Below, in pieces: positions 2,344 through 26,272 of a stretch of DNA of 64,000 nt. The notes beneath the pieces were generated by a model. That model was not told the DNA's origin. It saw only the letters and a program-made list of their open reading frames with translations, and searched no databases. The stretch is from positions 1,844-65,843 of the forward strand of contig DATEZQ010000003.1 of NCBI GenBank assembly GCA_035583355.1, written 5' to 3'. The stretch's first letter is position 1; each line of letters opens with the position of its first letter. Source of the DNA: Minisyncoccota bacterium. GTDB lineage: Bacteria > Patescibacteriota > Minisyncoccia > Phycocordibacterales > UBA6899. The translations under genes were made by a program, and so were the position numbers.

Positions 2344-5300
2344 TTACATTTTTTCGAGTGCAAATTCAAGCTTTCCCTCAAGTAGCGCTACCGACTGCGT
2401 CGTTTCGCCTTCCTTGATGTCGAGGATGGTCGCCTCAACCGAGAGCATTTCCTGCATGTCGAGCGCAAAAGCCATTGCCTCCTCATTACCTGCGATAAGC
2501 AATCGTGCTGCCTCACCAGGATTGAACCCTGAGCGCTTGCGCTCTTCCTGAATCGCGCGAAGCACGTCACGCATCACTCCCTCGCGCTTAAGCTCTGGAG
2601 TCAAAACAAGATCAAGCTCTACAGCATCAGCGAGAAGGGCTGCGTCATGTGAAACAGTCTTTACATTAAGCTCATCGGCAATGATTGCAGTAAGAGCGGC
2701 GTCCGCAACGAGTGCTTTGTTACCCACATAAAGTGCGGCGAGTGGCTGACGCACCTTGATGCCGTTCTTTGCACGCTGCTCAAGTGCAAGTGTTACCGTC
2801 TTACGCACCGCCTCCATCGTATCGAGCACAGTGTGTAGAGCAACACCAGGCACTGGCCACTGCTCAAGATGCACACTTTCAAGCTTCTTCTCCACAGGAA
2901 GACGCTGATAGAGATCCTCGGCAAGGAATGGAGTGAACGGTGCAAGCAAACGCGAGAGTTGGAATAATATCCAGCCAAGCGTCATCTCTGCAAATGCCCT
3001 ATCTTCTCCCTCTCCCTTCAAGCGATCGCGTGAGCGGCGAAGCCACCATGTCGAAAGATCATCAATCAGTGGCAAGACTTGCTTTGCTGCACGATCAAGC
3101 TCGTTGGTCTCAAGGAAGTGTGTGGCCTCGTTATGCGTCTCATTCCATCGTGCAATGATCCAACGATCAAGTGCATGAGTCGACTTCGGCTGCTCACGGA
3201 GCACCGCCTGTCCCGTAGCATACATCTCATAGAACGAGCGTACATTATCAAGACGTAATGTGAGTTTCTTTGTGATCTCATCAACACCAAGTGTTGAAAA
3301 TTTCAGATCCTCGCCGCGCATCGCAGGCGACGCAACCATATAGAAGCGTAGTGCATCAGCACCATACTTCCCTACGACTTCCATAGGGTCTGGATAATTA
3401 CGTAGCTTCTTGCTCATCTTTTCACCGTTCTCAGCAAGGACAAGACCGTTTACAATCACATTTCGAAATGGCGACTTTCCAAAGAGTCCAATTCCAAGAA
3501 GCAGCATAGAATAGAACCATCCTCTTGTCTGGTCAAGACCCTCGGCGATGAAATGCGCCGGGAAATTATGCAAGAACATCTTTCCTGCATCATCATTCTC
3601 ATTACCACTAAAGTAGTGCTGCGCAAATGGCATTGAGCCAGACTCAAACCAGCAGTCGAACACTTCGGGAATACGCCTCATCTTGCCTCCACAGGCACAG
3701 CTGAAGACCACATCATCAATGTGCGGTCGATGGAGATCAAGCGCGTAGTCAGCATTATGCGGAAGTGGAGCAAACTTCATCTTATGCACCTCAGCATTAA
3801 GGACATAATCATCGTTTGCATTTTTACGCAATCGTATCGTCTCCGCCTCATCTGCGCCACGCGCTACTGCATCAAGCATCCATACACCATACTCGTGTGT
3901 AACAAAAAGAATGTTCTTCCCTTCATACACTGCGTCGGTCGCATAAAATGCCTCTCCAAAGCGACGCTTCATATCACGCAATGATTCACCATTCGGCGCT
4001 GCACGCGCAAACTTTTCCTCAACTGACGGGAACATCGCGCGATACTCATCGACACTGTGACCATTGAGGTCACCTGCATCTACCTCGTGCAGTCGTGCAT
4101 CATAAATGATTTGATCTCGAGGAATACCAACCATATCTGCCGCAATCTCTGCCGTCTCCTTCGTACGCTGCATCGGTGAAGCGATAATGATATCGATCTT
4201 CATCTTCTGTAACTTTTCACCAGCACTCTTCACTTGCTCTATCCCCTTCTTCGTCAGTGGATTAACGTCATCTTCGCGACAGGAAATGATATCCTGCACA
4301 TTTGACTCTGCCTCACCATGGCGAATTGCGAAATAGTGGTTCTTCGGAGGCTGCGCATCACGCAGCTCATCAATATGACCAATGACACGAATAGCATCAC
4401 AGTCCTTACATTTCCATACAGGAATTGCTGCACCCCAATAGCGGCTGCGCGAAATCGCCCAATCGCGTGCTCCCTCAAGCCAATTATGGAAACGGCCGTG
4501 GCCTACAGCATCTGGCACCCAATTGATTTCCTTATTTGCTTCAACAGCCTTCTCTTTAATCTCGCCCACATTCACAAACCATGAAGATGCCGCGTAATTG
4601 ATGAGTGGCCAATCGCAGCGCCAACAATACGGATAGCTGTGAGTCATATTCTCCTTGCTGAAGAAGAGATTTGCATCTTGAAGGAACTTGATGACAGCGA
4701 TGTCGGTGCTGAGTCGTACGCGGTCATCATCGCTCTTTGGTTTCACTGACATTCCCGCAAAACCAGTCACTTCATCCTTAATCGTTCCATCCATGCGCAC
4801 ATGCTGAATGAACGGGAGTTGTTCCCGCTTCCCGAGCTGCATATCATCATCACCAAATGCTGGCGCAATATGCACTATCCCTGTACCCGTATCACTTGCA
4901 ACGAAATCTGCACCATAGACATGCCAACCACGCTCGCGGTTTATGAGCTCAGCGTCATTAGCATAATCCATAAATGGAGGAATATATGCGATTCCAACGA
5001 GCTCTTTACCTGATACTTCTCCGGTCACGACAGCGCTTGGAGCAATACGAGGCAATGTATCCTTCTGTGCAATATATGTTGTCGCATCTCCAGGAAGCGT
5101 AAATCGCACATAAGCAAGATCCACATTGACCGCGAGTGCAACATTTCCCGGCAACGTCCAAGGAGTCGTTGTCCATGCAAGAAGTGCAACATCAGGATTA
5201 TCACGCAACGGAAATTTAAGCGTGACTGAGATATCCTTTACATCCTTATACCCGCCCGCAACCTCTGAGGCAGCGAGTGTCGTCTCACAACGAGGACAAA

Positions 5301-5880
5301 TGTGCATAGACTTGTAGCCCTCATAAATGAGCTTCTTGTCATAGAGTGTTTTGAAGGCCCACCATACACTTGCCATATAGCCAGTATCCATCGTCTTGTA
5401 GGCATGATCCATGTCTACCCAACGACCAACACGTGGTACGATTTCCTTCCATTCTTTGTCATACATCAGCACCGATGCTTCTGCTTTCGCATTAAAGGCA
5501 CCGATACCATATTCCTCGATCTGTCGCTTATGCTCGAGGCCAAGTTCTTGTTCAATGAGATTCTCCACCGGAAGTCCGTGGCAGTCCCAACCCCACACAC
5601 GGCGCACATAGCGTCCACGCATCGTCTGAAAACGAGGAATGACATCCTTGATGGTACCCGCAAGAATATGCCCATAGTGGGGCAAGCCGGTGGCAAATGG
5701 TGGCCCATCGAAAAACACGAACGGCTCATTGTGCGCAGTAGCTTCGAGTGACTTCTTAAAAATACGCTCTTTCGTCCAAAAATCTCCGATACGCACCTCG
5801 CGCTCGGCTAATGTTTCCTTTGAAAGATCGTGTGGCTGCTTTGAATCCATAGTGTTCTTATAGTATAGGAAAATGACCAT
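2344..5880 (-). CDS. ileS: Isoleucyl-tRNA synthetase (eukaryote-like type 2) with an inserted histidine-phosphatase-like domain
   Basis: HIGH region PPFATGLPHYGHIL, WDCHGLP, KMSKS-like EKMSKKLRNYPDP, zinc knuckle CKDC...CACGG, WFESGSMPF. The protein is 1178 aa, against about 1000 aa for a typical IleRS. An extra ~200 aa segment (aa ~510-712) carries RHGEAESN, LTKKGIEQ, IIIASPMQRTKETA and VTHEYG motifs. The likely true start is the Met at 5850 (MDSKQPH). Confidence 0.9.
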   Translation of the reverse strand: MVIFLYYKNTMDSKQPHDLSKETLAEREVRIGDFWTKERIFKKSLEATAHNEPFVFFDGPPFATGLPHYGHILAGTIKDVIPRFQTMRGRYVRRVWGWDCHGLPVENLIEQELGLEHKRQIEEYGIGAFNAKAEASVLMYDKEWKEIVPRVGRWVDMDHAYKTMDTGYMASVWWAFKTLYDKKLIYEGYKSMHICPRCETTLAASEVAGGYKDVKDISVTLKFPLRDNPDVALLAWTTTPWTLPGNVALAVNVDLAYVRFTLPGDATTYIAQKDTLPRIAPSAVVTGEVSGKELVGIAYIPPFMDYANDAELINRERGWHVYGADFVASDTGTGIVHIAPAFGDDDMQLGKREQLPFIQHVRMDGTIKDEVTGFAGMSVKPKSDDDRVRLSTDIAVIKFLQDANLFFSKENMTHSYPYCWRCDWPLINYAASSWFVNVGEIKEKAVEANKEINWVPDAVGHGRFHNWLEGARDWAISRSRYWGAAIPVWKCKDCDAIRVIGHIDELRDAQPPKNHYFAIRHGEAESNVQDIISCREDDVNPLTKKGIEQVKSAGEKLQKMKIDIIIASPMQRTKETAEIAADMVGIPRDQIIYDARLHEVDAGDLNGHSVDEYRAMFPSVEEKFARAAPNGESLRDMKRRFGEAFYATDAVYEGKNILFVTHEYGVWMLDAVARGADEAETIRLRKNANDDYVLNAEVHKMKFAPLPHNADYALDLHRPHIDDVVFSCACGGKMRRIPEVFDCWFESGSMPFAQHYFSGNENDDAGKMFLHNFPAHFIAEGLDQTRGWFYSMLLLGIGLFGKSPFRNVIVNGLVLAENGEKMSKKLRNYPDPMEVVGKYGADALRFYMVASPAMRGEDLKFSTLGVDEITKKLTLRLDNVRSFYEMYATGQAVLREQPKSTHALDRWIIARWNETHNEATHFLETNELDRAAKQVLPLIDDLSTWWLRRSRDRLKGEGEDRAFAEMTLGWILFQLSRLLAPFTPFLAEDLYQRLPVEKKLESVHLEQWPVPGVALHTVLDTMEAVRKTVTLALEQRAKNGIKVRQPLAALYVGNKALVADAALTAIIADELNVKTVSHDAALLADAVELDLVLTPELKREGVMRDVLRAIQEERKRSGFNPGEAARLLIAGNEEAMAFALDMQEMLSVEATILDIKEGETTQSVALLEGKLEFALEKM

Positions 5881-8234: not shown

Positions 8235-8305
8235 ATGTGATTACTATATATGCTTTGCCTTAAACCCGCAACAAAAGAAAACGCGCCCGAAGGCGCGAAT
8301 ATTTG

Positions 8306-8923
8306 CTAGTGTTTTGCAAGAATACGACGAACGATGTCCTCAGCTTCCTTGCAGACGATCTCGAGAGGCTTCGTTGCATCGATACGATACATCTTACCAG
8401 GAACCTCCTCGGCGAAAAACTGCTCGTAGCCCTTGCGCACACGTTCATACCACTCAAGAGGCTCAGTATCGAAGCGTGATGCAGCTTCATTGCGTGCAAG
8501 CGCACGTGCACGGCCGACCTCTGCGGGCACATCGAAATAGATGTAGGCATCAGGACGCGCATAGCGCGTAATGATACTGGTGATTCCCGAGAAGTATGCA
8601 ACCGCATCTTCATGCTCGTACGGAACTTGAATTGCAAACGAAGAACCGTCGAAGCGATCAGTGATGACATGAAATCCCTCAGCACGCTTCGGTGCGATGA
8701 ACTTCGCAACATGCTCTGCCCTATCAGCGCAAAAGAGCAAAAACTGCGTGTGCCAATGATACTCGCCTGTGCTCTTGCGAAAAATAAATTCGCGCATGGC
8801 TTTATCATCAGGTTCCCTAGTGTAGACCACAGGCAGATCGGAAAGTACACGTGCGAGATGCTCACGCACCGTCGACTTACCACTCCCTTCGATACCTTCA
8901 AGCGCGATCATCATTCCATACAT
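8306..8923 (-). CDS. tmk: Thymidylate kinase
   Basis: P-loop IALEGIEGSGKST, TREPDD nucleotide-binding motif, about 205 aa. Confidence 0.8.
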   Translation of the reverse strand: MYGMMIALEGIEGSGKSTVREHLARVLSDLPVVYTREPDDKAMREFIFRKSTGEYHWHTQFLLFCADRAEHVAKFIAPKRAEGFHVITDRFDGSSFAIQVPYEHEDAVAYFSGITSIITRYARPDAYIYFDVPAEVGRARALARNEAASRFDTEPLEWYERVRKGYEQFFAEEVPGKMYRIDATKPLEIVCKEAEDIVRRILAKH

Positions 8924-9058: not shown

Positions 9059-9604
9059 CTATGCATTGAGCAAGCGCTCGAGCTGCGCGTATAATTCCTC
9101 CTTGGAGCCACTATTGTCGATGATTACCGCAGACCTTGCCTTGAGTCCATCAATGAGCAGCTCCGACTCAAGCTTGTGATCATTCACGAATTGTTCCATG
9201 GTCTTTTCTACATCATCTGACTTTTCGCCACGAAGTTTCATACGTGCAAAACGTGTCTCCATTGGTGCATCGATATAGATGAGGCGAAACCCAGGCTGTC
9301 GCTCAAGAAAGGTCACATCATCAGGACGACGGACGCCATCAACGATGATGAGTGGGGCCGTAGATTTTTCTACCTGCGTCGCAAGGGCGCGCGCAAGTGT
9401 ATCTTCCCCAAAGCCCTCACGGAGTACGCGCGAAAGACGTGAAAGATGTTCACGGTCATTAGGAAGTCCAAGAATTTCTACAATAGAAAAGAGTGAGCTT
9501 GAGAAGCGGAACAGTGTCGCATTGTGGCGCTCCTTGAAATATTCCGCGATGGTACCTTTTCCTGCGGCAATAGGACCAGTGATACCGATGATTTGTTTTG
9601 CCAT
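9059..9604 (-). CDS. P-loop nucleotide kinase (adenylate kinase / dephospho-CoA kinase-like fold), exact substrate unknown
   Basis: Walker A IGITGPIAAGKGT, DGVRRPDDVTFLE resembling the adenylate-kinase DGFPR motif, about 180 aa. Confidence 0.5.
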   Translation of the reverse strand: MAKQIIGITGPIAAGKGTIAEYFKERHNATLFRFSSSLFSIVEILGLPNDREHLSRLSRVLREGFGEDTLARALATQVEKSTAPLIIVDGVRRPDDVTFLERQPGFRLIYIDAPMETRFARMKLRGEKSDDVEKTMEQFVNDHKLESELLIDGLKARSAVIIDNSGSKEELYAQLERLLNA

Positions 9605-9661
9605 ATAGAAGAGTATAGCATATGGGAGCTCAAGCCTAAATAAACGGTTATTCTACATTTT

Positions 9662-9725
9662 GCCCGTTGAGCGCGCTGGCACGAGTCACAAAGTATTCTG
9701 CTCCGCACTGCTCGCAGAATACCAA
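9662..9725. repeat. tRNA-less fragment of the Family-1 tRNA-associated element (tattctgc...gcagaata hairpin module)
   Basis: gagcgcgctggcacgagtcacaaagtattctgctccgcactgctcgcagaatacc matches ...tcgcacacagtattctgcgagcagcgcggagcagaatactg at 62215-62260 and the hairpin at 32590-32625. Confidence 0.5.
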
Positions 9726-9886
9726 GTGCTCGTCGCCACACCTCGCTGGTCCTCAATATAAAAACACTCTTCGGAAAGAGTGTTTTTATATTTGCGGGCC
9801 GAGCTCCGGTTTACAGCAAGGGCGGATGCATACGCATCCGCCACTTGTGACATTTTGATATGTTGTTGAGTTTGAGCCGCGATGGA

Positions 9887-10312
9887 TTACATCTCGCACT
9901 TTACACCCATAGACCTTGCTGTACCAGCAACAATCTTCATTGCTGCCTCGAGGTTAGCTGCATTAAGATCAGGCATCTTCTTCTTTGCGATCTCCTCAAC
10001 CTGTGACTTCGTGAGGGTACCTGCATTCTGTGAGCCTGGCTTGTTTGAAGCCTTCTCCTTGCCGAGTGCCTTAAGGATAAGACGTGACATTGGAGAAACC
10101 TTGGTGATGAAATCGTAGGTGCGATCATCGTAAACGGTGATCACTACAGGAACGATATCGCCTACCATGTCCTTTGTTGCATCGTTGAACTTCTTGACGA
10201 AGTCACCGATGTTTACACCTGCCTGACCAAGTGCTGGTCCAACTGGTGGTGCTGGTGTTGCCTTACCTCCTGGGATCTGCAACTTCACCAACTTTACTAC
10301 TTTCTTTGCCAT
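9887..10312 (-). CDS. rplK: 50S ribosomal protein L11
   Basis: [34 protein letters not shown] signature. Confidence 0.95.
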
Positions 10313-10529
10313 AATATATAAACTTAAGTTTATTGCCCAGCGAAGCGAGAGAAGAAAATGGCGTTACTTCGCATATTTTCTTCCGAGCGAGCGCAGACAA
10401 CAAGTAATTACTTATTCTTGAGCCATAGAAGCTTGGGATGTAATCAGTGTTGCAACACTGCCTCCCTAATACTCTTGAATACTGTGCATACTACAGCATT
10501 TTCCGGAAAAATCAACCCTGCCTTGGATT

Positions 10530-10680
10530 TCGCATTTACCCTACCCACACCATGAAACCGCGAGAATTTTTGCTCGCAACAGCCTCGCTGGAGCTTGACG
10601 CGGTACGATGGTACCGCGAGAGCGAAGCGTGAGGCTGGTCCGAGCAAAAAGGCCGCGGCTGTAAGGTCGCGAAACCCGTG
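10530..10680. repeat. Dispersed intergenic repeat, a second copy of the 38905-39110 sequence
   Basis: cgcatttaccctacccacaccatgaaaccgcgagaattt vs ttacgcatttcacccactccacaccatgaaacggcgaggattt at 38905, followed by related GC-rich hairpins (gcggtacgatggtaccgc palindrome). Confidence 0.45.
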
Positions 10681-10714
10681 GAATTGTTTTTTCCATCAAA
10701 AAACCCTAGCAGGG

Positions 10715-11320
10715 CTAGAGCTTTTTGATCTGGAAAAAATCCAATTCCACGGGAGTTTCGCGACCGAACATGGAAACATTGACTTTGACTCGAGCTTTCT
10801 CACGATCTATCTCTGAGATACGTCCTTCCATATCCTTGAATGGACCATCCATGACCATGACCGTCTCTCCGACTTCAACATCCATGACCGCACGTGCTTC
10901 TCCGTCCTTGCCGATGTAGCCGAGGAAGTGTGCAACCTCCTTTGGAGTAAGCGGCACTGGAATAACACCTGCACCGACGAATCCAGTAACGCGTGGCGTA
11001 TTACGCACGACGTACCATGACTCAGGGTCATACTTCATGTCGACGAGCACATAACCTGGATAGATCTGCTCCTCGACTTCGACACGCTTGGTACCCTTCA
11101 TCTTTACGGTCTTTTGCTTTGGGACAACGACATCAAAGATCTTTGTACCCATACCGAGTGACTCGATACGCTGCTTCAAGTTACGCACCACCGCATTCTC
11201 ATATCCTGAGTAGGTGTGAATTGCGTACCACTGACGGCCACGAGCTGCAGTCGCAGCAAAGGTATCATCCTTCGCAACTTCTGATGGGATTTCCTCATGA
11301 CGAATTTCTTCTTGATCCAT
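10715..11320 (-). CDS. nusG: Transcription termination/antitermination factor NusG
   Basis: NGN domain WYAIHTYSGYE and KOW motif GETVMVMDGPFKDMEGRISEIDREKARVKVNVSMFGRETPVEL. Confidence 0.95.
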   Translation of the reverse strand: MDQEEIRHEEIPSEVAKDDTFAATAARGRQWYAIHTYSGYENAVVRNLKQRIESLGMGTKIFDVVVPKQKTVKMKGTKRVEVEEQIYPGYVLVDMKYDPESWYVVRNTPRVTGFVGAGVIPVPLTPKEVAHFLGYIGKDGEARAVMDVEVGETVMVMDGPFKDMEGRISEIDREKARVKVNVSMFGRETPVELDFFQIKKL

Positions 11321-11875: not shown

Positions 11876-12442
11876 CTAGGGAAAAAGCAGGAACTGCATG
11901 AGCGAAGAGAGCTCAGGCCAGAGATTCATGATCTCCTTTCTGGCGTCCGCCGGCGACTCACTTGCATGGATGACGTTGCGCACCTGACGCAATTCTTCAT
12001 CGGCAATTTTCATGGAGTCAGTCGATAGTGCGCGAATGGTGCCCGGCTCCGCAAACGCGGGATCGGTGGCACCAACAATCTTGCGCAGGGTTGCATTGGC
12101 CTGCTCGCCCGAAAGGATGAATGCATGCACCTTACCCATGGTCATGTTCTCGCGTATCACCGCAAGAATCTCCTTCCCGAGCTCAGTCGGGGTCTTTGAG
12201 ACTCCTCCGCGCTTGGAAAGGATATCATGACGCTTCGCGCCAAGCCGCTGGCACCAATGATCACTCTTGTCATAGTGACGAGCGGCCTGCAGTGGGGAAA
12301 TTGAGAACTCCGCCTCCATGATGATGGAAAGCTTTCCATCCGCGACGAGCATTTCTCGGATCTGATCCCGAAGGCCCATCTCCATACCATCGGGCTTGAT
12401 GAGCGCGAACGCAAACTCATTACCGGACATACCGTCCTCCAT
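11876..12442 (-). CDS. ndk: Nucleoside diphosphate kinase, longer than typical with an internal insertion
   Basis: FAFALIKPDG, PGTIRA, active-site NVIHASES (NxxHGSD-like). The start is called at the internal Met MEDGMSG; the track ORF extends to 12616 but its N-terminal 58 aa look non-native. Confidence 0.8.
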   Translation of the reverse strand: MEDGMSGNEFAFALIKPDGMEMGLRDQIREMLVADGKLSIIMEAEFSISPLQAARHYDKSDHWCQRLGAKRHDILSKRGGVSKTPTELGKEILAVIRENMTMGKVHAFILSGEQANATLRKIVGATDPAFAEPGTIRALSTDSMKIADEELRQVRNVIHASESPADARKEIMNLWPELSSLMQFLLFP

Positions 12443-12533
12443 AAAATGGCACACGCCATGATTATCTGAAGAAAAACTAACACGCGCAGTACAAAAAGAA
12501 AAGAGCCCCGATGTTTGGGGCTCTTTGAAGAAC

Positions 12534-13235
12534 TTATGCGGCAAAAGGCTTTGGCGTGTGCATCGACTTACGTCGCTGCTGTGTGTAAACGAGAGAAGCG
12601 TCGAGACGCTCCCCATCGAGGATCACTGTTCTCCGTCCAGTGACGAAGAAGCGGCGCGATGGAATGACGCCAGGAATCACTTTCCGCATCTTTTCGATGA
12701 CTTCCGAATGTTCCACGGGAGTATTCCACATGCCGTACACCTGCATCTGCAGGGCCTTATCTTTGTGCTTGAAGAGGCCGGCGAATTCCCCCGTCGCTTC
12801 AAGCACGATGAATGCGACGGTAGCTGGTGACTTAGGATTCTTGGGATAAGCCCGCACTCCGAGAATGAGTCTCCCCTTCTCGGATACAATATGCGTCTGA
12901 GCCAGACACCCCCGCTTCTGCTTCGCGAGCAGATAGCTGACAAGGTTGAGGTCAGAGAGCTGGTGGTTCGGGATGATGACGATCTCCCGTTCCTTGCGCA
13001 TTGCACGGGCAGCAGGGTCCCCCTGCACCATAGTCACCCCCGGAGGAAATGACTGCTCGGCATAGCCGAGTGTGGCTTCGCCACCTGGTTTTTCCGAAGA
13101 AAGTGATTGTGGTTGACTCATGCATACCTCCATACTTTCGAACATTGATGAGAAAGGACAGGTGGCGTACTCTATGTACGTAGGAGTATTATAGCACAAA
13201 TATATAGTTTGTAAAGGTGTTTGCGGATATAACAA
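12534..13235 (-). CDS. Hypothetical protein, possibly a lysophospholipid acyltransferase (PlsC/LPLAT-like); tentative
   Basis: IIPNHQLSDLN resembles the NHxxxxD acyltransferase motif I but is one residue short, and VIPGVIP resembles motif IV. The N-terminal 30 aa of the ORF look dubious; the real start may be an internal Met. Confidence 0.35.
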   Translation of the reverse strand: MLYPQTPLQTIYLCYNTPTYIEYATCPFSSMFESMEVCMSQPQSLSSEKPGGEATLGYAEQSFPPGVTMVQGDPAARAMRKEREIVIIPNHQLSDLNLVSYLLAKQKRGCLAQTHIVSEKGRLILGVRAYPKNPKSPATVAFIVLEATGEFAGLFKHKDKALQMQVYGMWNTPVEHSEVIEKMRKVIPGVIPSRRFFVTGRRTVILDGERLDASLVYTQQRRKSMHTPKPFAA

Positions 13236-16274: not shown

Positions 16275-17453
16275 TTAATCAAGATGTTCACGCAAAGCTT
16301 TCAAGATACTCGCGGATTCATTCGTCTGCACTACGAGTATGCGTGCGGATGAATTATCAGCAGAAATATCAAGGAACGCTGCCTCGCCAGGAGTACCAAC
16401 GAGCTGCGCATTCAATGCAGGGTTAAGCGCAAGGCCGAACGCTGAAAGACTTTCGATGATGCGATTGCGCACCACAGGTGCCCCTTCTCCAATAGCAGCA
16501 GTAAAGACGAGTGCATCGAGTCCACCAAGGACTGCGATATAACTCCCTACGGTCTTCACGACTTGATACACAAAGAGATCAAGTGCGAGCTTTGCCTTTT
16601 CGTCACCCTCCCCCGAGAGCCTGATGATATCGCGCATATCACTACTTACTCCAGAGAGTCCGAGAAGTCCAGATTCTTTATTGCAAAGCGTCTCGATCTC
16701 CGCACGAGTCTTCCCTGCCGAAAGTAGTGCAAAGATAATGCTTGGGTCAATAGTCCCACTACGCGTCCCCATCATCAAGCCCTCAAGCGGAGTAAAGCCC
16801 ATCGATGTATCAATGGTCTTTCCGTCACGAAGTGCGGTAATGCTTGCGCCGCTGCCGAGATGAAGCACGATCGTGCGCGTAATTGCAACCTCAGATGCAT
16901 GTTCATTCAGTCTATCCCATATTGAGGCGACGGAGTGTCCGTGGTATCCATAACGTGCAAAACCAAATTCATCAACCACTTTTGCAGAGAGGCCATAACT
17001 CTTCGCCACGTTAGGCATCGTGTGATGGAATGCACTATCGGACGCTGAGATCAGTCTTGTATTCGGAAGTGCAGCGCGAATGAGTGCGAGCTCGAGCCGT
17101 GCAGGATGTATATGGAGCGGCGCAAGATATTCCTGTGCCTCAAATTTCTCCATAAATTCATCATCCACGACACGATGCTCTGCGAAATAATCTCCAGGGG
17201 CAACTGTGCGCACTGCAATCGCACCAATCGTGGCGATACCACGGGCAGTACAATCAGCAATCACACGATCAATCGCATGCTGAAACTCCTCGGAAGTGAT
17301 CATCACTTCGATTCGTCCTCCATCAGTCACTGCGAGCTTGAACTCCTGTCCAACTTTTTCAAAATGCCAAACAATGAGTTTTTCATTGCCCTTATAGAGT
17401 GCGTATTTCTTGGAAGAACTTCCGATATTTACAATTATTTGTTCCATGTCCAT
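16275..17453 (-). CDS. ackA: Acetate kinase
   Basis: IVNIGSSSKKYALY, HLGSGASI, DTSMGFTPLEGLMMGTRSGTIDPS signatures. Confidence 0.9.
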   Translation of the reverse strand: MDMEQIIVNIGSSSKKYALYKGNEKLIVWHFEKVGQEFKLAVTDGGRIEVMITSEEFQHAIDRVIADCTARGIATIGAIAVRTVAPGDYFAEHRVVDDEFMEKFEAQEYLAPLHIHPARLELALIRAALPNTRLISASDSAFHHTMPNVAKSYGLSAKVVDEFGFARYGYHGHSVASIWDRLNEHASEVAITRTIVLHLGSGASITALRDGKTIDTSMGFTPLEGLMMGTRSGTIDPSIIFALLSAGKTRAEIETLCNKESGLLGLSGVSSDMRDIIRLSGEGDEKAKLALDLFVYQVVKTVGSYIAVLGGLDALVFTAAIGEGAPVVRNRIIESLSAFGLALNPALNAQLVGTPGEAAFLDISADNSSARILVVQTNESASILKALREHLD

Positions 17454-19789
17454 GCGTCAATTTCATCAGGATCCATTCCGTGTTCAATAATATACGAGCG
17501 GTGTGCTTTGAGCTTCTCCTCATACTTTGCAACAATTCCCATTCCAAAGTCTCGTGCTATCCAGTCACGCTCCATGAGGGTTGTGAAGATATCAATTACG
17601 AGATGGTAACGACTTGTCTTGTTGCGCACATGCATATCAAATGGAGTAGTCGTTGAACCACTCTCAGAGTAGCCGTGCACATGGAAACGGTTCGGGTTTG
17701 ACTCATGAGGATTATCAAACAAGATTGCTTTCACCGCCTCGGTATAACCGTGGAAATTGAAAATGACTGGCTTATCCACCGTGAAGAAATCATGGAAGTG
17801 TGGGCGTGGTGGCACACAATCAGTTCCTCCGATTCCATTCAATGCCGAGAACTCGAGCACATTCACGAAACGCGTGCGCAATGTTGGATACTCGTCCTTT
17901 GCAAGCGAGATAGCAGCTAGTGCCTCCTTCACCATGTAACTACCTGAAGCAGCCATCACGATTTCTGGATTTTCATCACTTGCGAATTGCCACGTACTGA
18001 TTCCGTGTTTCAGCTCCTCCTTCGCTTCCGCATCAGTAAGCCATAGTGGTTCGTCGGTCTTTCCTGCTGCAATCACGTTGATCGAATTCTTTGATTCCAA
18101 GCAGTGCTGCATTACGAGTGCTGCAGAGTTTGCATCTGCGGGGAAATAAACGTGCACAAAATCTCCGTGACGAGAAAGCATATCCGAGATGAATCCTGGA
18201 TTCTGGTGTGAGAAGCCATTATGATCTTGGCGCCAACTTGATGACGTGAGGATATAGTTCGCAGAAGGACAATCGCCTCTCCATGGAAGCTCAAGACAGA
18301 TACGAAGATACTTCGCGTACTGATCCACCATGCTCGTAATCACCTGAACGAATGCTTCATATGAAGCGAGTACACCATGGCGACCGGTCAAAATATAACC
18401 CTGCATCATTCCCTGCATCGTATGCTCAGAGAGCATTTCATAGACATGTCCACCAGGAGCTAAGTCCTTATCCCATGGCTTTCGAGGCCAATTGAATGAA
18501 CGAGTCGTTGCCTTAAATACTGCATCGAGCTTATTCGAGTAGGTCTCATCTGGAGAAAAGAGTGAAATATTGCCTTGCTCCTTATTGGCCTTCATGACCT
18601 CTGCAAGATAGATACCTACTTGCTTCATCGAGCTTGCTACATCGATACCACGCTTATCCGTCGTCTTGAGCGCGACTTCAGGAAGTGTGAGCTTGAGCAA
18701 TTCACGAGTTGCAGTACATGCATGCTTGGTGCTTCCCATGCGCAAGTGCTCATTTGGCACAAGCGACATGATCTCATCGGTAAACTTCCCATCAACAAAG
18801 AGCTCATGGAAGTTATATGAGCGCATCCACGCCTCCACTGCCGCGCGCTGCTCGGGATCGGTGCGCGCCTCGAGTCCAACAACTTGGTGCGAGAGACAAT
18901 TATCCTCATACTTCTCACCCTGCAATTCCTTGATACCTGACCAGCCCTTTGGTGTACGCATCACAATCATTGGAAATCGCGGTGCAACCACCTCAACACC
19001 AGAGCGTGCTGCCTCTTGGATCATGCGAATTTCTTCGTATGCCTGGTCAAGCGCACGGATCATCTGTGCATCAACGTCGCCCTTATATTCATCAACGATC
19101 ATCGGAGCATAGCCATAGCCATGGAAGAGATCCATCAATTCCTCATCGCTCATACGTCCGAAGAATGTGGGACCTGAGATCTTGTAGCCATTTAAGTGGA
19201 GCACAGGGAGCACGGCACCATCCTTCTTTGGGCTAATGAGTTTATTTGCATGCCAAGCAGTCGCGAGCGGACCTGTCTCAGCTTCACCGTCTCCAACAAG
19301 ACAAGTAACGATCAGTTCGGGATTATCGAGCACCGCACCATATGATGATGCGAGTGAATAACCAAGTTCCCCACCCTCAAGAATCACTCCGGGAGTCTCA
19401 GGACTTGAGTGGCTCGGGAAGCCATATGGCCAACTAAACTTACGAGCAATCTCTGCGATGCCTGCTTCGTCACGAAGAATTGTTGGATGAAACTGTGTAA
19501 GCGAGCCCTCGAGAAAAACATTCGCCTGAAGTCCAGGAAAACCGTGTCCTGGTCCAAGGACGAACATCATGTCGACATTCTTCTCAATAATCAGACGATT
19601 AAGGTGCGCATAAAGGAAATTTATTCCTGGAACGCTTCCCCAGTGACCAAGCAATCGTGGCTTGATATGTTCTTCGCGAAGCGGCTCCGTGAGCATATAA
19701 TTTCCGCGTAAATAAATCTGAATGGCAGAGAGATAATTCGCGGCGCGAACATATTTCTGCAAACGAGCAATGGTGTCATTTTCAGTCAT
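17435..19789 (-). CDS. xfp: Xylulose-5-phosphate/fructose-6-phosphate phosphoketolase
   Basis: 784 aa, N-terminal RLLGHWGSVPGINFLYAHLNRLI phosphoketolase signature with TPP-binding regions; its 3' end overlaps the ackA start by 19 nt. Confidence 0.9.
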   Translation of the reverse strand: MTENDTIARLQKYVRAANYLSAIQIYLRGNYMLTEPLREEHIKPRLLGHWGSVPGINFLYAHLNRLIIEKNVDMMFVLGPGHGFPGLQANVFLEGSLTQFHPTILRDEAGIAEIARKFSWPYGFPSHSSPETPGVILEGGELGYSLASSYGAVLDNPELIVTCLVGDGEAETGPLATAWHANKLISPKKDGAVLPVLHLNGYKISGPTFFGRMSDEELMDLFHGYGYAPMIVDEYKGDVDAQMIRALDQAYEEIRMIQEAARSGVEVVAPRFPMIVMRTPKGWSGIKELQGEKYEDNCLSHQVVGLEARTDPEQRAAVEAWMRSYNFHELFVDGKFTDEIMSLVPNEHLRMGSTKHACTATRELLKLTLPEVALKTTDKRGIDVASSMKQVGIYLAEVMKANKEQGNISLFSPDETYSNKLDAVFKATTRSFNWPRKPWDKDLAPGGHVYEMLSEHTMQGMMQGYILTGRHGVLASYEAFVQVITSMVDQYAKYLRICLELPWRGDCPSANYILTSSSWRQDHNGFSHQNPGFISDMLSRHGDFVHVYFPADANSAALVMQHCLESKNSINVIAAGKTDEPLWLTDAEAKEELKHGISTWQFASDENPEIVMAASGSYMVKEALAAISLAKDEYPTLRTRFVNVLEFSALNGIGGTDCVPPRPHFHDFFTVDKPVIFNFHGYTEAVKAILFDNPHESNPNRFHVHGYSESGSTTTPFDMHVRNKTSRYHLVIDIFTTLMERDWIARDFGMGIVAKYEEKLKAHRSYIIEHGMDPDEIDAWTWNK

Positions 19790-19810: not shown

Positions 19811-21328
19811 ATGAAAGAACTTGAACGAGCTAAATTCAAGATCGCACTGCTCTTTATTTGTAGAAACTATATTCGGTCGTTCTTTGACTTTTGTCCAAGA
19901 CGCTATAGTATGACAGCAGATTGTTCTCAGAAAGGAACTCCTATGAGCCTCACTGTTTCTCTCGTGCAGTACCCCTCGAACCCTGCAACGCAGATGGCCA
20001 AACATGCTGCCGGCGTATGCAAGAATCCGCACATCCCCCAAATGGGCGCCCCCGGCGTCGATGTGCGCAAGGGACTTTTCCAGGTCTCCCACCACACGAC
20101 CCTCGCGCATACGAACCTCACGTTCGCCATCGATGGCCTCTCCGTCAACGGCTTTACCTTCGGTGCACACCTCGCGAACATCTACTACAACAGCGATCAG
20201 CGTAGCGGAAGGTTCTGCAACGATATGTTCGGGAACCCCGATATCCTTGCGCTCGCTGAGCACATGCAGACGTACTGGAGCTTGGACACGAAACAACTCG
20301 AAGCGGCCCTCAACTTCATCAAGAAGGGTCTTCACCTCTATGCGTCACACCTCGACGAAAGCACACAGCTCATGAAGCTGTGGGCAAAAGAGGAACGTCC
20401 GTACATAAAGACCGACATGCTCGAAAAGAGCGGGGCGCGCAACTTCGCACAGGAACAACTGCGCATGCTTGTCCCGACGATATTCCCAAGCGGGACCGAT
20501 ATCACACTCAGCCTCACGGCCATCTTTTCGCTGTGGCACACCGCGCACTCTCCGGAGATGCGTGCGCTCACTGATAAGATGCGTGACATCGTACTCGAAC
20601 TCTGGCCCGATATCGACTATATGTTCGACGAGAAATCACGTCGTGCATATGATTTCGTTCCGAAGTTCGAAGGAGCTCCGCACCTCACGAGCGACCCCGT
20701 CGCTCGGTTCATTGGGCACACGGGCGACTTCGGAAAGATCATCGTCCCTGACGAGGAAGACATGTCCCCTGTGGACCTGCTCCCTTATCGTCCCAAGTAC
20801 ATGGACAACAATGGTATCGAAGTCCATTCGGAAATCGAATACTCTGTTGCAACCATGGGGCAAGACCAGAGGCATCGCTCGATCCGCCGCACGGAACCTC
20901 GTTTTACGGGTGGCTTCTATATGCCCCCCGTCATCGAGGCGTGCGTCCCCAAGGACATCGTCCTTGCGTACATGGAAGAATGGTACGCCCTGCGTACACT
21001 TCTCCCCGAGAGTCTCGTGCTCGCACTTGCTCCGTATGGCGCAGTGGTGCAGTACCGCAAGTTCGCCCCGATCAATGCGTTCGCGCATGAGCAAGCCAAG
21101 CGTGCCTGCAAGCTCGCGCAAGGAGAGATTCGCAAAGGAGCACTCCTCCTTCGCGAATCCATTCTGGCTTCAGGTGTGCCCAATGCAGCAATCGCAGCAG
21201 AGCTCATCGGCTCACCCTGCTGCCGCAACGGCGGCACCTGCACCGAAGGGCTTTACTACTGTGGTATCAGTCTTGCCGCGATTCGTAGCGGAGACCTTTC
21301 AGCCTGCTTCGGTCCGTTCAAAGTGTAA
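19811..21328 (+). CDS. ThyX-like (flavin-dependent thymidylate synthase-like) domain protein, divergent and about twice normal ThyX length; function uncertain
   Basis: HHTTLAHTNLTFAIDGLSVNGFTFGAHLANIYYNSDQRSGRF aligns to the ThyX core HETPFEH..FTF....RHR..S..SxRY but with the first RHR replaced by LAN; a second RHR-containing stretch QDQRHRSIRRTE lies downstream. The real start may be an internal Met (MTADC or MSLTVSL). Confidence 0.4.
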   Translation: MKELERAKFKIALLFICRNYIRSFFDFCPRRYSMTADCSQKGTPMSLTVSLVQYPSNPATQMAKHAAGVCKNPHIPQMGAPGVDVRKGLFQVSHHTTLAHTNLTFAIDGLSVNGFTFGAHLANIYYNSDQRSGRFCNDMFGNPDILALAEHMQTYWSLDTKQLEAALNFIKKGLHLYASHLDESTQLMKLWAKEERPYIKTDMLEKSGARNFAQEQLRMLVPTIFPSGTDITLSLTAIFSLWHTAHSPEMRALTDKMRDIVLELWPDIDYMFDEKSRRAYDFVPKFEGAPHLTSDPVARFIGHTGDFGKIIVPDEEDMSPVDLLPYRPKYMDNNGIEVHSEIEYSVATMGQDQRHRSIRRTEPRFTGGFYMPPVIEACVPKDIVLAYMEEWYALRTLLPESLVLALAPYGAVVQYRKFAPINAFAHEQAKRACKLAQGEIRKGALLLRESILASGVPNAAIAAELIGSPCCRNGGTCTEGLYYCGISLAAIRSGDLSACFGPFKV

Positions 21329-21393
21329 GCATCAAAACAATGCACTCGCCCTTCGGGGCGAGTTTTCATTAAAAAATCCGTCATGCGGATTTT

Positions 21394-22893
21394 TTAATTA
21401 AGCAGCTGCTCTTTAATAAGCTTCATCTCTTCCACCTTTGCGGCGAGATCGGAAGTTGCGGCATACACAGCTTCTACTCCATTTTGTGATCCATAGAAGA
21501 AGTGTGTTCCCGCATACTCTCTAATCGCAGCGAGGTCATCCTCAGCATGCCTGCTCCCGATAACAACAAAGCCGATCTTACGAGTTCCGAATTCACTGAC
21601 TGGCAAATCATAGAGCGAGAGCGAATTCGACGTTCCATCCTTTTCCTTAACGAGCAGTCCGCCTTGGAATCGCGAATCGAGCAGCCACGCATTTTTGTTC
21701 TTCCAAGAAAAACGTGCCTGCCCGAATGGCTCAAATGAATGCTCTTCAGTAAGTGTCGCCTTCATGAGGAAACTCTTTTGAGTATCTGAGTATGAAAGTA
21801 ATTTTGCGAGATCTCGTGGTGTTGTTGTCGATACAGTGAGGCTCGTGCCTCCACTCCACTCTGTGCTCATCATCCCGATTGCCTTCGACTTCTCATTCAT
21901 GTAGTTGCGAAATACTTTTTCTCCGCGTAACTTTACAATTCCTTTTGCGGCAATATCGCTTCCATCAAAGAGGAGTGGGTAAAGCAATGCGCCAACTTGC
22001 ACAGCACCGACATCGGTTGCTCTTGCGCTCGCAACATCTTTTCCCTTCACTAATTTTTCAAAATCAATATATTTATATTGATCGATTGTCTCCACTGAGA
22101 CAAGTGCAGTCATGAGCGCGACGAGTCGCCCCGGATGCACCAGCGCGTCCTCACCATGACTCCAGAGCACTTGACCTGTCTCTTCATCAAACACCGAAAA
22201 TGCCTGTGCACTCACCTCGGGAAGCGCTCCCGTATCACGCATATAGTAGCGCATCTCGTTGCTTGGAAGCGGAAGTGTACCACCCGTTACGTGCATGCGG
22301 GTATTCACACGCACAAGACCGAAAAGTTTTTCGGCATCGGGAGTCGAGAGCCTGATACACCCACCAGAATACCCCTTAGGAACATCCGTACCATCCTGAT
22401 AGGTCGGCCATCCGTGAATAAAGAAATTTCCGTAAAATTGCATGCTCCATGGCATCCACGTATTCCCAATCGAAGACAAATGCTTTGTCTCCTTCGTCTT
22501 CACCGCATAGTCACCTGCAGGTGTCTCCCAAAATGTCCCTGGACGACCTATTGAAAGAATAGAAAATGACGCAACGGTTGTTGTCCCCTCAGTGACTATA
22601 AGCGTTTTCGCATCAAGGTTCACACTGATCTCACGCTCATCAGACACCGGGGCATCAATAACATTACTTCGACCATCGAATAATACAGAGAGTGCAGCAA
22701 AATCTTTAAGTGATATTTGATTTGGAGGTAATGCTGCAGTATTGGTCGCAGGAGCACTGCCGACGGCTGCTGCAGTCATCTGCGCACCATGAACATTCGG
22801 AAGAGCAGAGGCAAAAGCGATAGCAAAAGCCGCACCAGAGCAAAGCGCCCCAGAGAGCATGAACAATTTTGCATGTGTTGGTGCAGTGCGCAT
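21394..22893 (-). CDS. Secreted L,D-transpeptidase (YkuD domain) fused to a degenerate D-Ala-D-Ala carboxypeptidase (DacA/S11-like) domain
   Basis: Signal peptide; YkuD catalytic motif FYGNFFIHGW...GYSGGCIRL. The C-terminal half has DacA-like landmarks (MNEKSKAIGMMSTEW, TTTPRDLAKLL, KNKNAWLL), but the SxxK site reads PGRLVALMT, so both the Ser and the Lys are lost. Confidence 0.65.
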   Translation of the reverse strand: MRTAPTHAKLFMLSGALCSGAAFAIAFASALPNVHGAQMTAAAVGSAPATNTAALPPNQISLKDFAALSVLFDGRSNVIDAPVSDEREISVNLDAKTLIVTEGTTTVASFSILSIGRPGTFWETPAGDYAVKTKETKHLSSIGNTWMPWSMQFYGNFFIHGWPTYQDGTDVPKGYSGGCIRLSTPDAEKLFGLVRVNTRMHVTGGTLPLPSNEMRYYMRDTGALPEVSAQAFSVFDEETGQVLWSHGEDALVHPGRLVALMTALVSVETIDQYKYIDFEKLVKGKDVASARATDVGAVQVGALLYPLLFDGSDIAAKGIVKLRGEKVFRNYMNEKSKAIGMMSTEWSGGTSLTVSTTTPRDLAKLLSYSDTQKSFLMKATLTEEHSFEPFGQARFSWKNKNAWLLDSRFQGGLLVKEKDGTSNSLSLYDLPVSEFGTRKIGFVVIGSRHAEDDLAAIREYAGTHFFYGSQNGVEAVYAATSDLAAKVEEMKLIKEQLLN

Positions 22894-23500: not shown

Positions 23501-24217
23501 TTACTTGTGCACTGCGATGAACAGCGCTCCGTGCGTGTTCTTCTCACTCGCACCTTCACGGATGATGTCGAATTGCATCACCTCGGGAAGGGATTCGGTG
23601 CCTGTGGCTGAGACAATATCTCCGAGCATGAAGCGAGCCTCATGGATCCCGGAGACACTCTCGACAAGCGGGACCGTGACGGTCTTGCCGAAGAGTTCCG
23701 TGCGCAGCATGAGCTTTGCACCCGCCTCAGCATTCACCGTCGCAGTGATCTCACTCACTGCATAACGCTCCGCCCGAATGGACTCCGTACCCGATGCGCT
23801 CGTCACGATTGACTTCGCAGATTCGGTCAGCTCGCCTTGCACGGAAGAGCCGACCCACCTGTTCTGCGTGACGACGTGGACATTGTCCGCACCCTGCACG
23901 GAACCCATCGTGAACTGCGTCCCCACGAGCGAACCGCCCGAGTTGCAGTAGATGGTCTGAATGCTGTAGCCACCCGAAAGCGTAATGCTGAAGGTAGGCC
24001 GGTCGCCATAGTTCACCCGCACGCTGGTCGGACTGATCGCCGCGCCCGTGTCGCACTGCGTGCTCACGAGAATGGGTTTGTCGAGAGCAGAGTCATCATG
24101 ACCCCTGCTGCCGGAGCACGCTGAAAAGGTGAGCAGAAGCAGCACGGAAACCAAGGAAGAGGCCGTATTTCGATTGATGCGCACGAGCGCCCCCTGTAAA
24201 GAAGTTGTCCTAGACAA
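23501..24217 (-). CDS. Hypothetical secreted protein / possible lipoprotein, in a GC-rich patch
   Basis: N-terminal hydrophobic leader ending LLLTFSACSG (imperfect lipobox), Ser/Thr/Gly-rich mature part. Local GC is visibly above the window average. Confidence 0.45.
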   Translation of the reverse strand: MSRTTSLQGALVRINRNTASSLVSVLLLLTFSACSGSRGHDDSALDKPILVSTQCDTGAAISPTSVRVNYGDRPTFSITLSGGYSIQTIYCNSGGSLVGTQFTMGSVQGADNVHVVTQNRWVGSSVQGELTESAKSIVTSASGTESIRAERYAVSEITATVNAEAGAKLMLRTELFGKTVTVPLVESVSGIHEARFMLGDIVSATGTESLPEVMQFDIIREGASEKNTHGALFIAVHK

Positions 24218-25702: not shown

Positions 25703-26272
25703 TTAGAGCTCGCGAATCAATGTACGCTTATAATCCTCATCTTTCAAAATACTGATGCCCCGCAATTCCAGTGGCGCAAAATCAGACCAAGAATATATAG
25801 TGATATGCGTCAGAGGAACTTCAAAACTTGGCCCAAGCAGCGCAGAGAGTCCATGGTAATACTGCTCGATCCCCGGCACATGCACGCGCTCAACAATAGC
25901 GCGACGAATATGCGGAGGGACATCACTTTTCCCCGCCTCCATGAGTCGCTCTCTTGTATAAATTTCCTCATGTAACGAGTATCTTCCAAGGCGCTCATAT
26001 GACCAATCTTGCGCTTTCGCCAATGTCTCTAGATTTTGTAATGTTTCATTAAATTGCTGGAACTCTTCAACCAAATCATGTACGCGTCGTGCATTATCGG
26101 ACACAACGATACTAATATGAAATTCTGATTTCAGTGTTAATCCATTTGAAGCGCCAACCACCTTGATCTCCTCGGGTATTTCCAAATGTGCAACACCAAG
26201 CATGAGGGTGCAGTCGTGGCTATTGAACTTGATTTGCGTCGGTAATAACATAACAATCATTATAGCAAACAA
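25703..26272 (-). CDS. Hypothetical protein
   Basis: ORF only; no motif recognised. The real start may be an internal Met. Confidence 0.35.
   Translation of the reverse strand: MFAIMIVMLLPTQIKFNSHDCTLMLGVAHLEIPEEIKVVGASNGLTLKSEFHISIVVSDNARRVHDLVEEFQQFNETLQNLETLAKAQDWSYERLGRYSLHEEIYTRERLMEAGKSDVPPHIRRAIVERVHVPGIEQYYHGLSALLGPSFEVPLTHITIYSWSDFAPLELRGISILKDEDYKRTLIREL

Follow-up and report, generated by a model that had tools for sequence, protein, structure and literature searches.

Flavin-dependent thymidylate synthases (ThyX; EC 2.1.1.148) are antibiotic targets and, owing to an active site that is shared between subunits, a mechanistic oddity. The double-length ThyX-like gene considered here lies at 19943..21328 on the forward strand of a 64,000-nucleotide stretch of DNA from a Minisyncoccota bacterium (assembly GCA_035583355.1, contig DATEZQ010000003.1, positions 1,844 to 65,843; hereafter the window), and it probably encodes the flavin-dependent thymidylate synthase of this organism, predicted to combine two ThyX-fold domains in one chain as a pseudo-heterodimer. 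The canonical enzyme forms homotetramers in which each of the four sites lies among three monomers (PMC11940539, PMC3498832). In particular, monomer A of PBCV-1 ThyX contributes Gln75 and Arg182 (R174 of the Thermotoga maritima enzyme, whose numbering is used for all equivalents) and monomer B contributes Ser88, Gln89, and Arg90 (PMC3498832). In the Mycobacterium tuberculosis enzyme, flavin adenine dinucleotide (FAD) and deoxyuridine monophosphate (dUMP) are bound by subunit A through its RHR motif and Arg199 (R174), subunit C gives Gln103, Ser105, Arg107, and Tyr108 (E86, S88, R90, and Y91), and Ser71 and Arg190 of subunit B contact the FAD phosphates (PMC6514825).

In the structure models both halves of the chain carry the fold of canonical ThyX (T. 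maritima TM0449, PDB 1KQ4/1O26, the reference sequence being confirmed as identical to PDB 1KQ4; M. tuberculosis ThyX, PDB 2AF6), since the models of the full-length protein and of its C-terminal half match ThyX structures exclusively. The AlphaFold model of the protein of 461 amino acids (aa), built from the family alignment, has a predicted local distance difference test score (pLDDT) of 89.3 and a predicted template modelling score of 0.89, and each of its 113 significant structural matches in the PDB is a ThyX; the C-terminal half modelled separately has a pLDDT of 90.8 and 156 PDB matches at E<=1e-3, all of them ThyX (best match E 6.8e-8; template modelling (TM) scores 0.52–0.57). The best structural match to this half is Thermus thermophilus Thy1 (PDB 6J61), a ThyX that has an extra domain at its C terminus; it differs in having a single catalytic domain and 270 aa. 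At the sequence level, Pfam Thy1 (PF02511) matches the whole protein in two stretches with 36.4 bits against a gathering score of 24.8, and the ThyA domain Thymidylat_synt (PF00303) gives no Pfam match in it. The N-terminal half (N-half; residues 1–232, counted from the Met at nucleotide 19943 as are all residue numbers of the tandem protein; 19943..20638), which may be termed the substrate-loop donor, is aligned by hhalign with canonical ThyX over T. maritima residues 10–202 with a probability of 93.5% and E 2.3e-7, whereas the C-terminal half (C-half; residues 236–412, 20648..21178), the RHR/flavin donor, is delimited by its separate model and by a weak Thy1 match that remains under the cutoff when this half is searched alone (13.8 bits, E 0.05). 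A single-sequence search of the PDB with the tandem protein gave no match and a profile search gave weak N-terminal matches only. The preliminary description of this DNA had named the lack of a ThyX-fold match in either half as the outcome that would speak against its proposal; the two Thy1 stretches and the models point the other way.

The residues that in canonical ThyX are found in every subunit are divided between the halves. In the N-half, HHTTLAH (residues 50–56, 20090..20110) corresponds to T. maritima H53-E-T55-P-F-E-H59, with H50 and H56 present in all of the 193 unique family members on which every conservation count is based and T52 in 189 of them. The QRSGRF sequence (residues 86–91, 20198..20215) is the dUMP/flavin active-site loop, equivalent to E86-L-S88-G-R90-Y91; Q86, S88, G89, and R90 are conserved in 191–193 members, the last three in all, and residues 82–90 have a low pLDDT in the model, as expected for the loop that is flexible in canonical ThyX as well. 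Further on, E171-Q-L-R174 (20453..20464) provides the equivalents of E144 and R147, and both E171 and R174 of the tandem protein are invariant (193/193). The place of the RHR motif is instead occupied by a degenerate, Arg-free stretch, G74-A75-H76-L77 (20162..20173; G74 192/193, H76 193/193); position 75 in this slot is Leu or Met across the family, and hhalign against canonical ThyX finds a hydrophobic residue at the Q75 position and no R174 segment.

The C-half is complementary. QDQRHR (residues 307–312, 20861..20878) is equivalent to Q75-x-x-R78-H79-R80, all six positions being invariant (193/193), and the FYxPP sequence downstream of QxxRHR is retained. In H382-E-x-x-K386-R387-x-C389 (21086..21109) the residues H382, E383, K386, R387, and C389 are likewise found in every member, and a collinear global hhalign alignment places K386-R387 on T. 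maritima L173-R174. This alignment is not significant alone but is in keeping with fold and secondary structure; R387 is thus the probable equivalent of R174. The active-site loop of this half is five residues shorter, without the Ser/Arg/Tyr triad, and there are no conserved equivalents of E144 and R147. As a consequence, the RHRxxS...SxRY motif is not contained in any single domain, RHR being solely in the C-half and SGR(F/Y) solely in the N-half; nevertheless, the full set of dUMP and FAD contacts (Q75, R78, H79, R80, E86, S88, R90, R147, and R174) is complete and invariant when each half is given one of the two subunit roles. Given this invariance among the 193 members, the split pattern in the alignment is not a matter of chance.

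The loss of the first RHR had already been noticed in the preliminary description, which gave LAN as the replacing residues; the loss stands, but the residues depend on the aligner (G74-A75-H76 with hhalign, A78-N79-I80 with HMMER against M. tuberculosis ThyX, L77-A78-N79 in an ungapped reading) because the N-half carries an insertion of 2–3 residues ahead of SGRF. The choice of aligner leaves the loss itself unaffected, as there is no Arg or Lys anywhere in residues 68–86. The second RHR is present as described, at a spacing of about 236 rather than 250 residues. That description did not mention that the N-half is without the R174 segment and the C-half without the Ser/Arg/Tyr loop, nor did it mention four invariant cysteines.

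The published structures place the two residue sets on different subunits of one site, and for this reason the fusion can be regarded as a hard-wired heterodimer: by alignment, the C-half holds exactly the set of subunit A and the N-half exactly that of subunit C. The suggestion of a fused pseudo-dimeric ThyX that exploits the inter-subunit site is therefore supported by the Thy1 matches, by the fold, and by residues that follow the subunit roles of the PBCV-1 and M. tuberculosis enzymes. In the proposed mechanism the C-half would supply Q307, R310-H311-R312, and R387 and the N-half Q86, S88, R90, F91, E171, and R174 to a composite site, which would bind FAD and convert dUMP and methylenetetrahydrofolate (CH2-THF) to deoxythymidine monophosphate (dTMP). 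A complete site would be possible only in the direction from C-half to N-half, the reciprocal site having none of the key Arg and Ser residues. Two fused chains assembled with D2 symmetry into a pseudo-tetramer would then have two live and two dead sites versus the usual four live ones, half as many for each ThyX domain, with one FAD expected on each 461-aa chain. Assembly of the chains, the count of live sites, binding of FAD, catalytic activity, and the metal considered below are all predicted features of the tandem protein. In comparison with the homotetramer of subunits of about 220–250 aa, the tandem protein is one chain of 461 aa with two non-identical domains in which the same catalytic residues are found, with RHR, Q75, and R174 in the C-half only and the S88/R90/Y91 loop with E144 and R147 in the N-half only.

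Several observations weigh against this interpretation. At the position of Tyr91 the window protein and 118 of the 193 relatives (61%) have Phe, the other 75 having Tyr, and Tyr91 is described as "strictly conserved", its mutation in T. maritima making flavin oxidation about 1000-fold slower (PMC11940539). The thyX equivalog model TIGR02170 scores 15.6 bits against a cutoff of 87.9. The profile comparison of the C-half with canonical ThyX is not significant (hhalign probability 0.3%), and the same holds for the N-half against the C-half (0.3%), so that, in the lack of detectable similarity between the halves, an internal duplication is not demonstrable from sequence. The role of the third subunit, which in T. 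maritima involves T55 and R165, is partly traceable, T52 being conserved and R165 having no conserved equivalent, and that residues of the two halves meet in a shared pocket is itself a prediction. Finally, in the window the gene sits outside the deoxynucleotide cluster described below, beside xfp/ackA and a cell-wall enzyme; the two close relatives L001 and L002 are similar in this respect, with the gene away from the cluster and next to xfp/ackA.

The genomic context of the relatives is informative as to function. A scan of reference genomes gave 80 loci, mostly from Patescibacteria, with the addition of metagenome-assembled genomes (MAGs) labelled Alphaproteobacteria, Rickettsiales, or Enterousia and with the complete genomes CP175956.1 and OY970290.1 among the carriers, and clustering of the flanking open reading frames (ORFs) revealed a recurrent same-strand cluster around the tandem gene in about 35 of them, in the order NusG, L11, L1, deoxynucleoside monophosphate-type kinases, deoxycytidine monophosphate (dCMP) deaminase, tandem ThyX, thymidylate kinase, MazG or dUTPase, and GatB; a serine hydroxymethyltransferase (SHMT) gene stands alongside in 8–9 loci and MazG in 6. 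Among 97 flanking ORFs, Pfam recognized thymidylate kinase 32 times, dCMP deaminase 23, dUTPase 14, deoxynucleoside kinase 14, a dCTP-deaminase-like domain 10, and AAA_17/18 kinases about 20 times. The genes of the cluster make dUMP, supply CH2-THF, and consume dTMP, a pathway context shared with canonical ThyX. Since about 35 of 80 loci put the gene among dCMP deaminase, dUTPase, thymidylate kinase, and SHMT, the tandem protein is very probably the thymidylate synthase of the organism and not a repurposed enzyme, and recruitment to another nucleotide- or RNA-modifying function, which the preliminary description had put forward as the alternative, is not supported. By tblastn, with the ThyA of Escherichia coli as one query, no canonical thyX or thyA is present in the window, in agreement with the earlier remark that no thyA is visible there, or in 79 of the 80 flanks, each of which covers about 16 kb, a small portion of a genome. 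The remaining locus, from a Moraniibacteriota MAG (L023, 6116-9268), contains a thyA-folA cassette between a truncated dCMP deaminase gene and an intact tandem ThyX gene, within the deoxythymidine triphosphate cluster; its ThyA is 61% identical to Escherichia coli ThyA, and the cassette, read as an acquired analogue in the thymidylate slot, may represent a non-orthologous displacement in progress.

In the window, NusG, L11, and an AAA_17/18 P-loop kinase are still together at 9059-11320 (-), and the kinase is 38% identical to the ThyX-adjacent kinase of locus L003. The tandem gene is about 9 kb from this block on the opposite strand, with neither L1 nor dCMP deaminase found in the interval.

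A scan of 1.84 billion representatives retrieved 132 clusters at E<=1e-30, 342 at E<=1e-10, and 1208 at E<=1e-3. The split is also found outside the family of the window protein. An archaeal tier of tandem proteins (485–525 aa, 30–60 residues longer; profile E-values 1e-26 to 1e-36) has the same order of motifs (HHT, SQR[YF], and a single RHR) and four C-terminal cysteines, spaced about 33/12/7 versus 38/6/7 in the window family. For one archaeal member (P0376), the contig also carries genes for DNA ligase A, TrmB, an ABCE1-like protein, and Translin; at L081 (7454-9569 of the archaeal contig JBPKZE010000003.1), amid genes of these kinds and a HerA-like gene, the tandem protein has 522 aa, with both the split motifs and the cysteines, and a dUTPase gene lies directly upstream. 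A library of viral structures led in turn to the "putative thymidylate synthase" of Microcystis phage Ma-LMM01 (BAF36111.1, 491 aa; locus L085, 15717-17192, AB231700.1), which matches across both halves (TM 0.51–0.55) and is split in the same way, with STRY in the N-half only and a single RHR in the C-half only. Of its 37 relatives (460–590 aa), 34 share this split, and they have no cysteines. This phage group has no tblastn similarity to the window protein and reaches hhalign probabilities of 12–15% N-to-N and C-to-C; it differs from it also in being longer and in having no cysteine tail. The window protein, with two ThyX-fold halves, SxR[YF] in the N-half only, and RHR in the C-half only, fits this split-site class. 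It also fits the subclass with four cysteines, of which one follows the R174 equivalent and the other three are in the C-terminal tail. As the design is shared by the family in the candidate phyla radiation (CPR), by the archaeal tier, and by the Ma-LMM01 group, the motif patterns indicate that it is old and recurrent, with the cysteines as the mark of the bacterial (CPR) and archaeal branch. A further enzyme of roughly double length, Chlamydia trachomatis ThyX of about 529 aa, was reportedly characterised biochemically by Griffin et al. in 2005 and is reported to be active. An assay of NADPH oxidation by C. trachomatis ThyX is mentioned in PMC3498832.

The four cysteines, C389 and those of C427-x5-C433-x6-C440 (21221..21262), are each conserved in 193 of 193 members and form a set, in and after the C-half, which has no counterpart in canonical ThyX and most likely holds a metal. 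The Cys-rich tail belongs to no Pfam family and has no sequence match in the PDB. Since C389 follows R387, the R174 equivalent, by two residues, the metal site may adjoin the active site; it would not be needed for the split design, as the phage-type proteins keep the split without cysteines. The cautious reading is a structural zinc site, which explains the same conservation. A more far-reaching but unlikely proposal is that the cysteines bind an iron-sulfur (Fe-S) cluster through which ferredoxin or a different low-potential donor would pass electrons on to the flavin, in place of or in addition to NAD(P)H. It is consistent with the invariance of the four residues and their similar spacing in the archaeal tier, with a position of C389 that could put the cluster close to the flavin/dUMP pocket, with the presence of Fe-S assembly genes in the window (a NifU-like protein and a class-V aminotransferase), and with the absence of a dedicated NADPH-binding domain from ThyX (PMC3498832). 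However, the spacing C-x37-C-x5-C-x6-C fits no known Fe-S signature, the phage-type proteins retain the split site without any cysteine, and no ferredoxin gene recurs in the neighbourhoods examined. If the proposal were true, this would be the first thymidylate synthase with a built-in entry for low-potential electrons, driven by ferredoxin rather than by NAD(P)H; such an entry would be common to Patescibacteria and small-genome archaea and would explain the reduction of the ThyX flavin in cofactor-poor anaerobes.

ThyX-like enzymes of natural-product and hypermodified-base pathways exist, and the tandem protein could in principle be a ThyX-fold enzyme of altered chemistry or substrate, for example in the methylation or hydroxymethylation of another pyrimidine nucleotide. 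The low score with the equivalog model, Phe in place of Tyr91 in most members, HHTT in place of HETP, the additional cysteine element, and the thyA-folA cassette adjoining the gene in one locus would all agree with such a change, which we nonetheless regard as improbable: the equivalents of the uracil- and phosphate-binding residues (Q75, R78, R80, S88, R90, R147, and R174) are all retained and invariant, the neighbouring genes provide dUMP and CH2-THF and use dTMP, and 79 of the 80 flanks of about 16 kb hold no second thymidylate synthase. As for the cassette, coexistence of ThyA and ThyX in one genome has a precedent in mycobacteria (PMC2386288).

It is extremely improbable, and effectively refuted by conservation, that the protein is a pseudoenzyme without activity or that a frameshift or misassembly has fused two adjacent thyX genes artefactually, because, although each domain is without half of its catalytic set and the gene is split in two on one metagenome contig, the 193 unique sequences are unbroken (440–510 aa), come from independent assemblies, and have invariant complementary catalytic residues, while the split example is due to a direct duplication of 79 nucleotides (nt) and the remaining half-length matches are contig-edge fragments. 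In the split example (L084, 193-1636), the duplication of about 79 nt breaks the family member into N-half and C-half ORFs, MFKAEKRRKEDLVFNLPKSFILTKS being encoded twice and the second ORF restarting at a duplicated ATG that overlaps the stop codon; the break stems from an error of assembly or else from a recent lesion. Natural two-gene forms were considered and rejected, the half-length matches being either fragments of this kind at contig edges or the result of the duplication.

The single-chain thymidylate synthase here proposed is contained in an ORF of 505 aa at 19811..21328 (+), which includes both strings quoted in the preliminary description, HHTTLAHTNLTFAIDGLSVNGFTFGAHLANIYYNSDQRSGRF and QDQRHRSIRRTE. 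The length of 505 aa reported there is not borne out, and translation very probably starts at Met45 (nt 19943), which gives the coding sequence of 461 aa at 19943..21328, stop codon included. In fact, a 99%-identical homologue has 461 aa, the relatives align from Met45, a promoter-like TTGACT-16 nt-TAGTAT sequence (19884..19911, a consensus match only, in the divergent intergenic region between xfp and the ThyX gene) and a Shine-Dalgarno-like AAAGGA read directly from the sequence (19931..19936, 6 nt upstream of the ATG) lie inside the longer ORF, and a GC-rich hairpin, terminator-like on both strands, is located past the stop (21344..21363); the long version is therefore an over-call, and the position of the promoter-like site within it argues by itself for the downstream start. 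The divergent arrangement with xfp, noted earlier, is confirmed by the phosphoketolase domains XFP_N/XFP/XFP_C at 17435-19789 (-), next to which is the acetate kinase gene.

On the other side, at 21394-22893 (-), is a 499-aa fusion of an L,D-transpeptidase (YkuD) and a D-Ala-D-Ala carboxypeptidase (Peptidase_S11), which is convergent with the ThyX gene and has the terminator hairpin in common with it.

Other genes of the window deserve mention on their own account. A class-I tRNA synthetase of 1177 aa, IleRS-like (tRNA-synt_1 and Anticodon_1), at 2344-5880 (-), carries within its catalytic domain, at residues 517–683, an inserted histidine-phosphatase domain (PF00300, 108.9 bits). In an ORF of 245 aa at 11876-12616 (-), the match to nucleoside-diphosphate kinase is confined to the last 80 residues or so (profile positions 59–130 of 135), which is due either to an over-called start with a truncated domain or to an unusual N-terminal extension. 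Five ORFs of 189–441 aa (8260-8901, 12534-13235, 23501-24217, 25703-26272, and 31040-32365) have no Pfam match at E<=1e-3.

The functional assignment itself has precedent, as databases already name members of the family FAD-dependent thymidylate synthase or ThyX (NCBI and JGI). The split-site architecture is apparently widespread but undescribed: in the searchable literature, the coverage of which missed key ThyX papers, there is no description of tandem, fused, or duplicated ThyX, of ThyX in CPR or DPANN, or of the cysteine set. The family can be regarded as an evolutionarily fixed, natural mixed-mutant experiment, in which the flavin/RHR set and the substrate loop would come from separate, specialised domains, and it offers a single-chain system where each role is mutable independently. 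If these predicted enzymes are active, the supposedly essential hydroxyl of Tyr91 would be dispensable in hundreds of lineages, and a putative invariant site of metal type would have been added to ThyX. In terms of annotation, the family explains why the equivalog model misses the predicted thymidylate synthase of much of Patescibacteria and of some archaea, and this in turn bears on claims as to whether such reduced organisms make their own dTMP.

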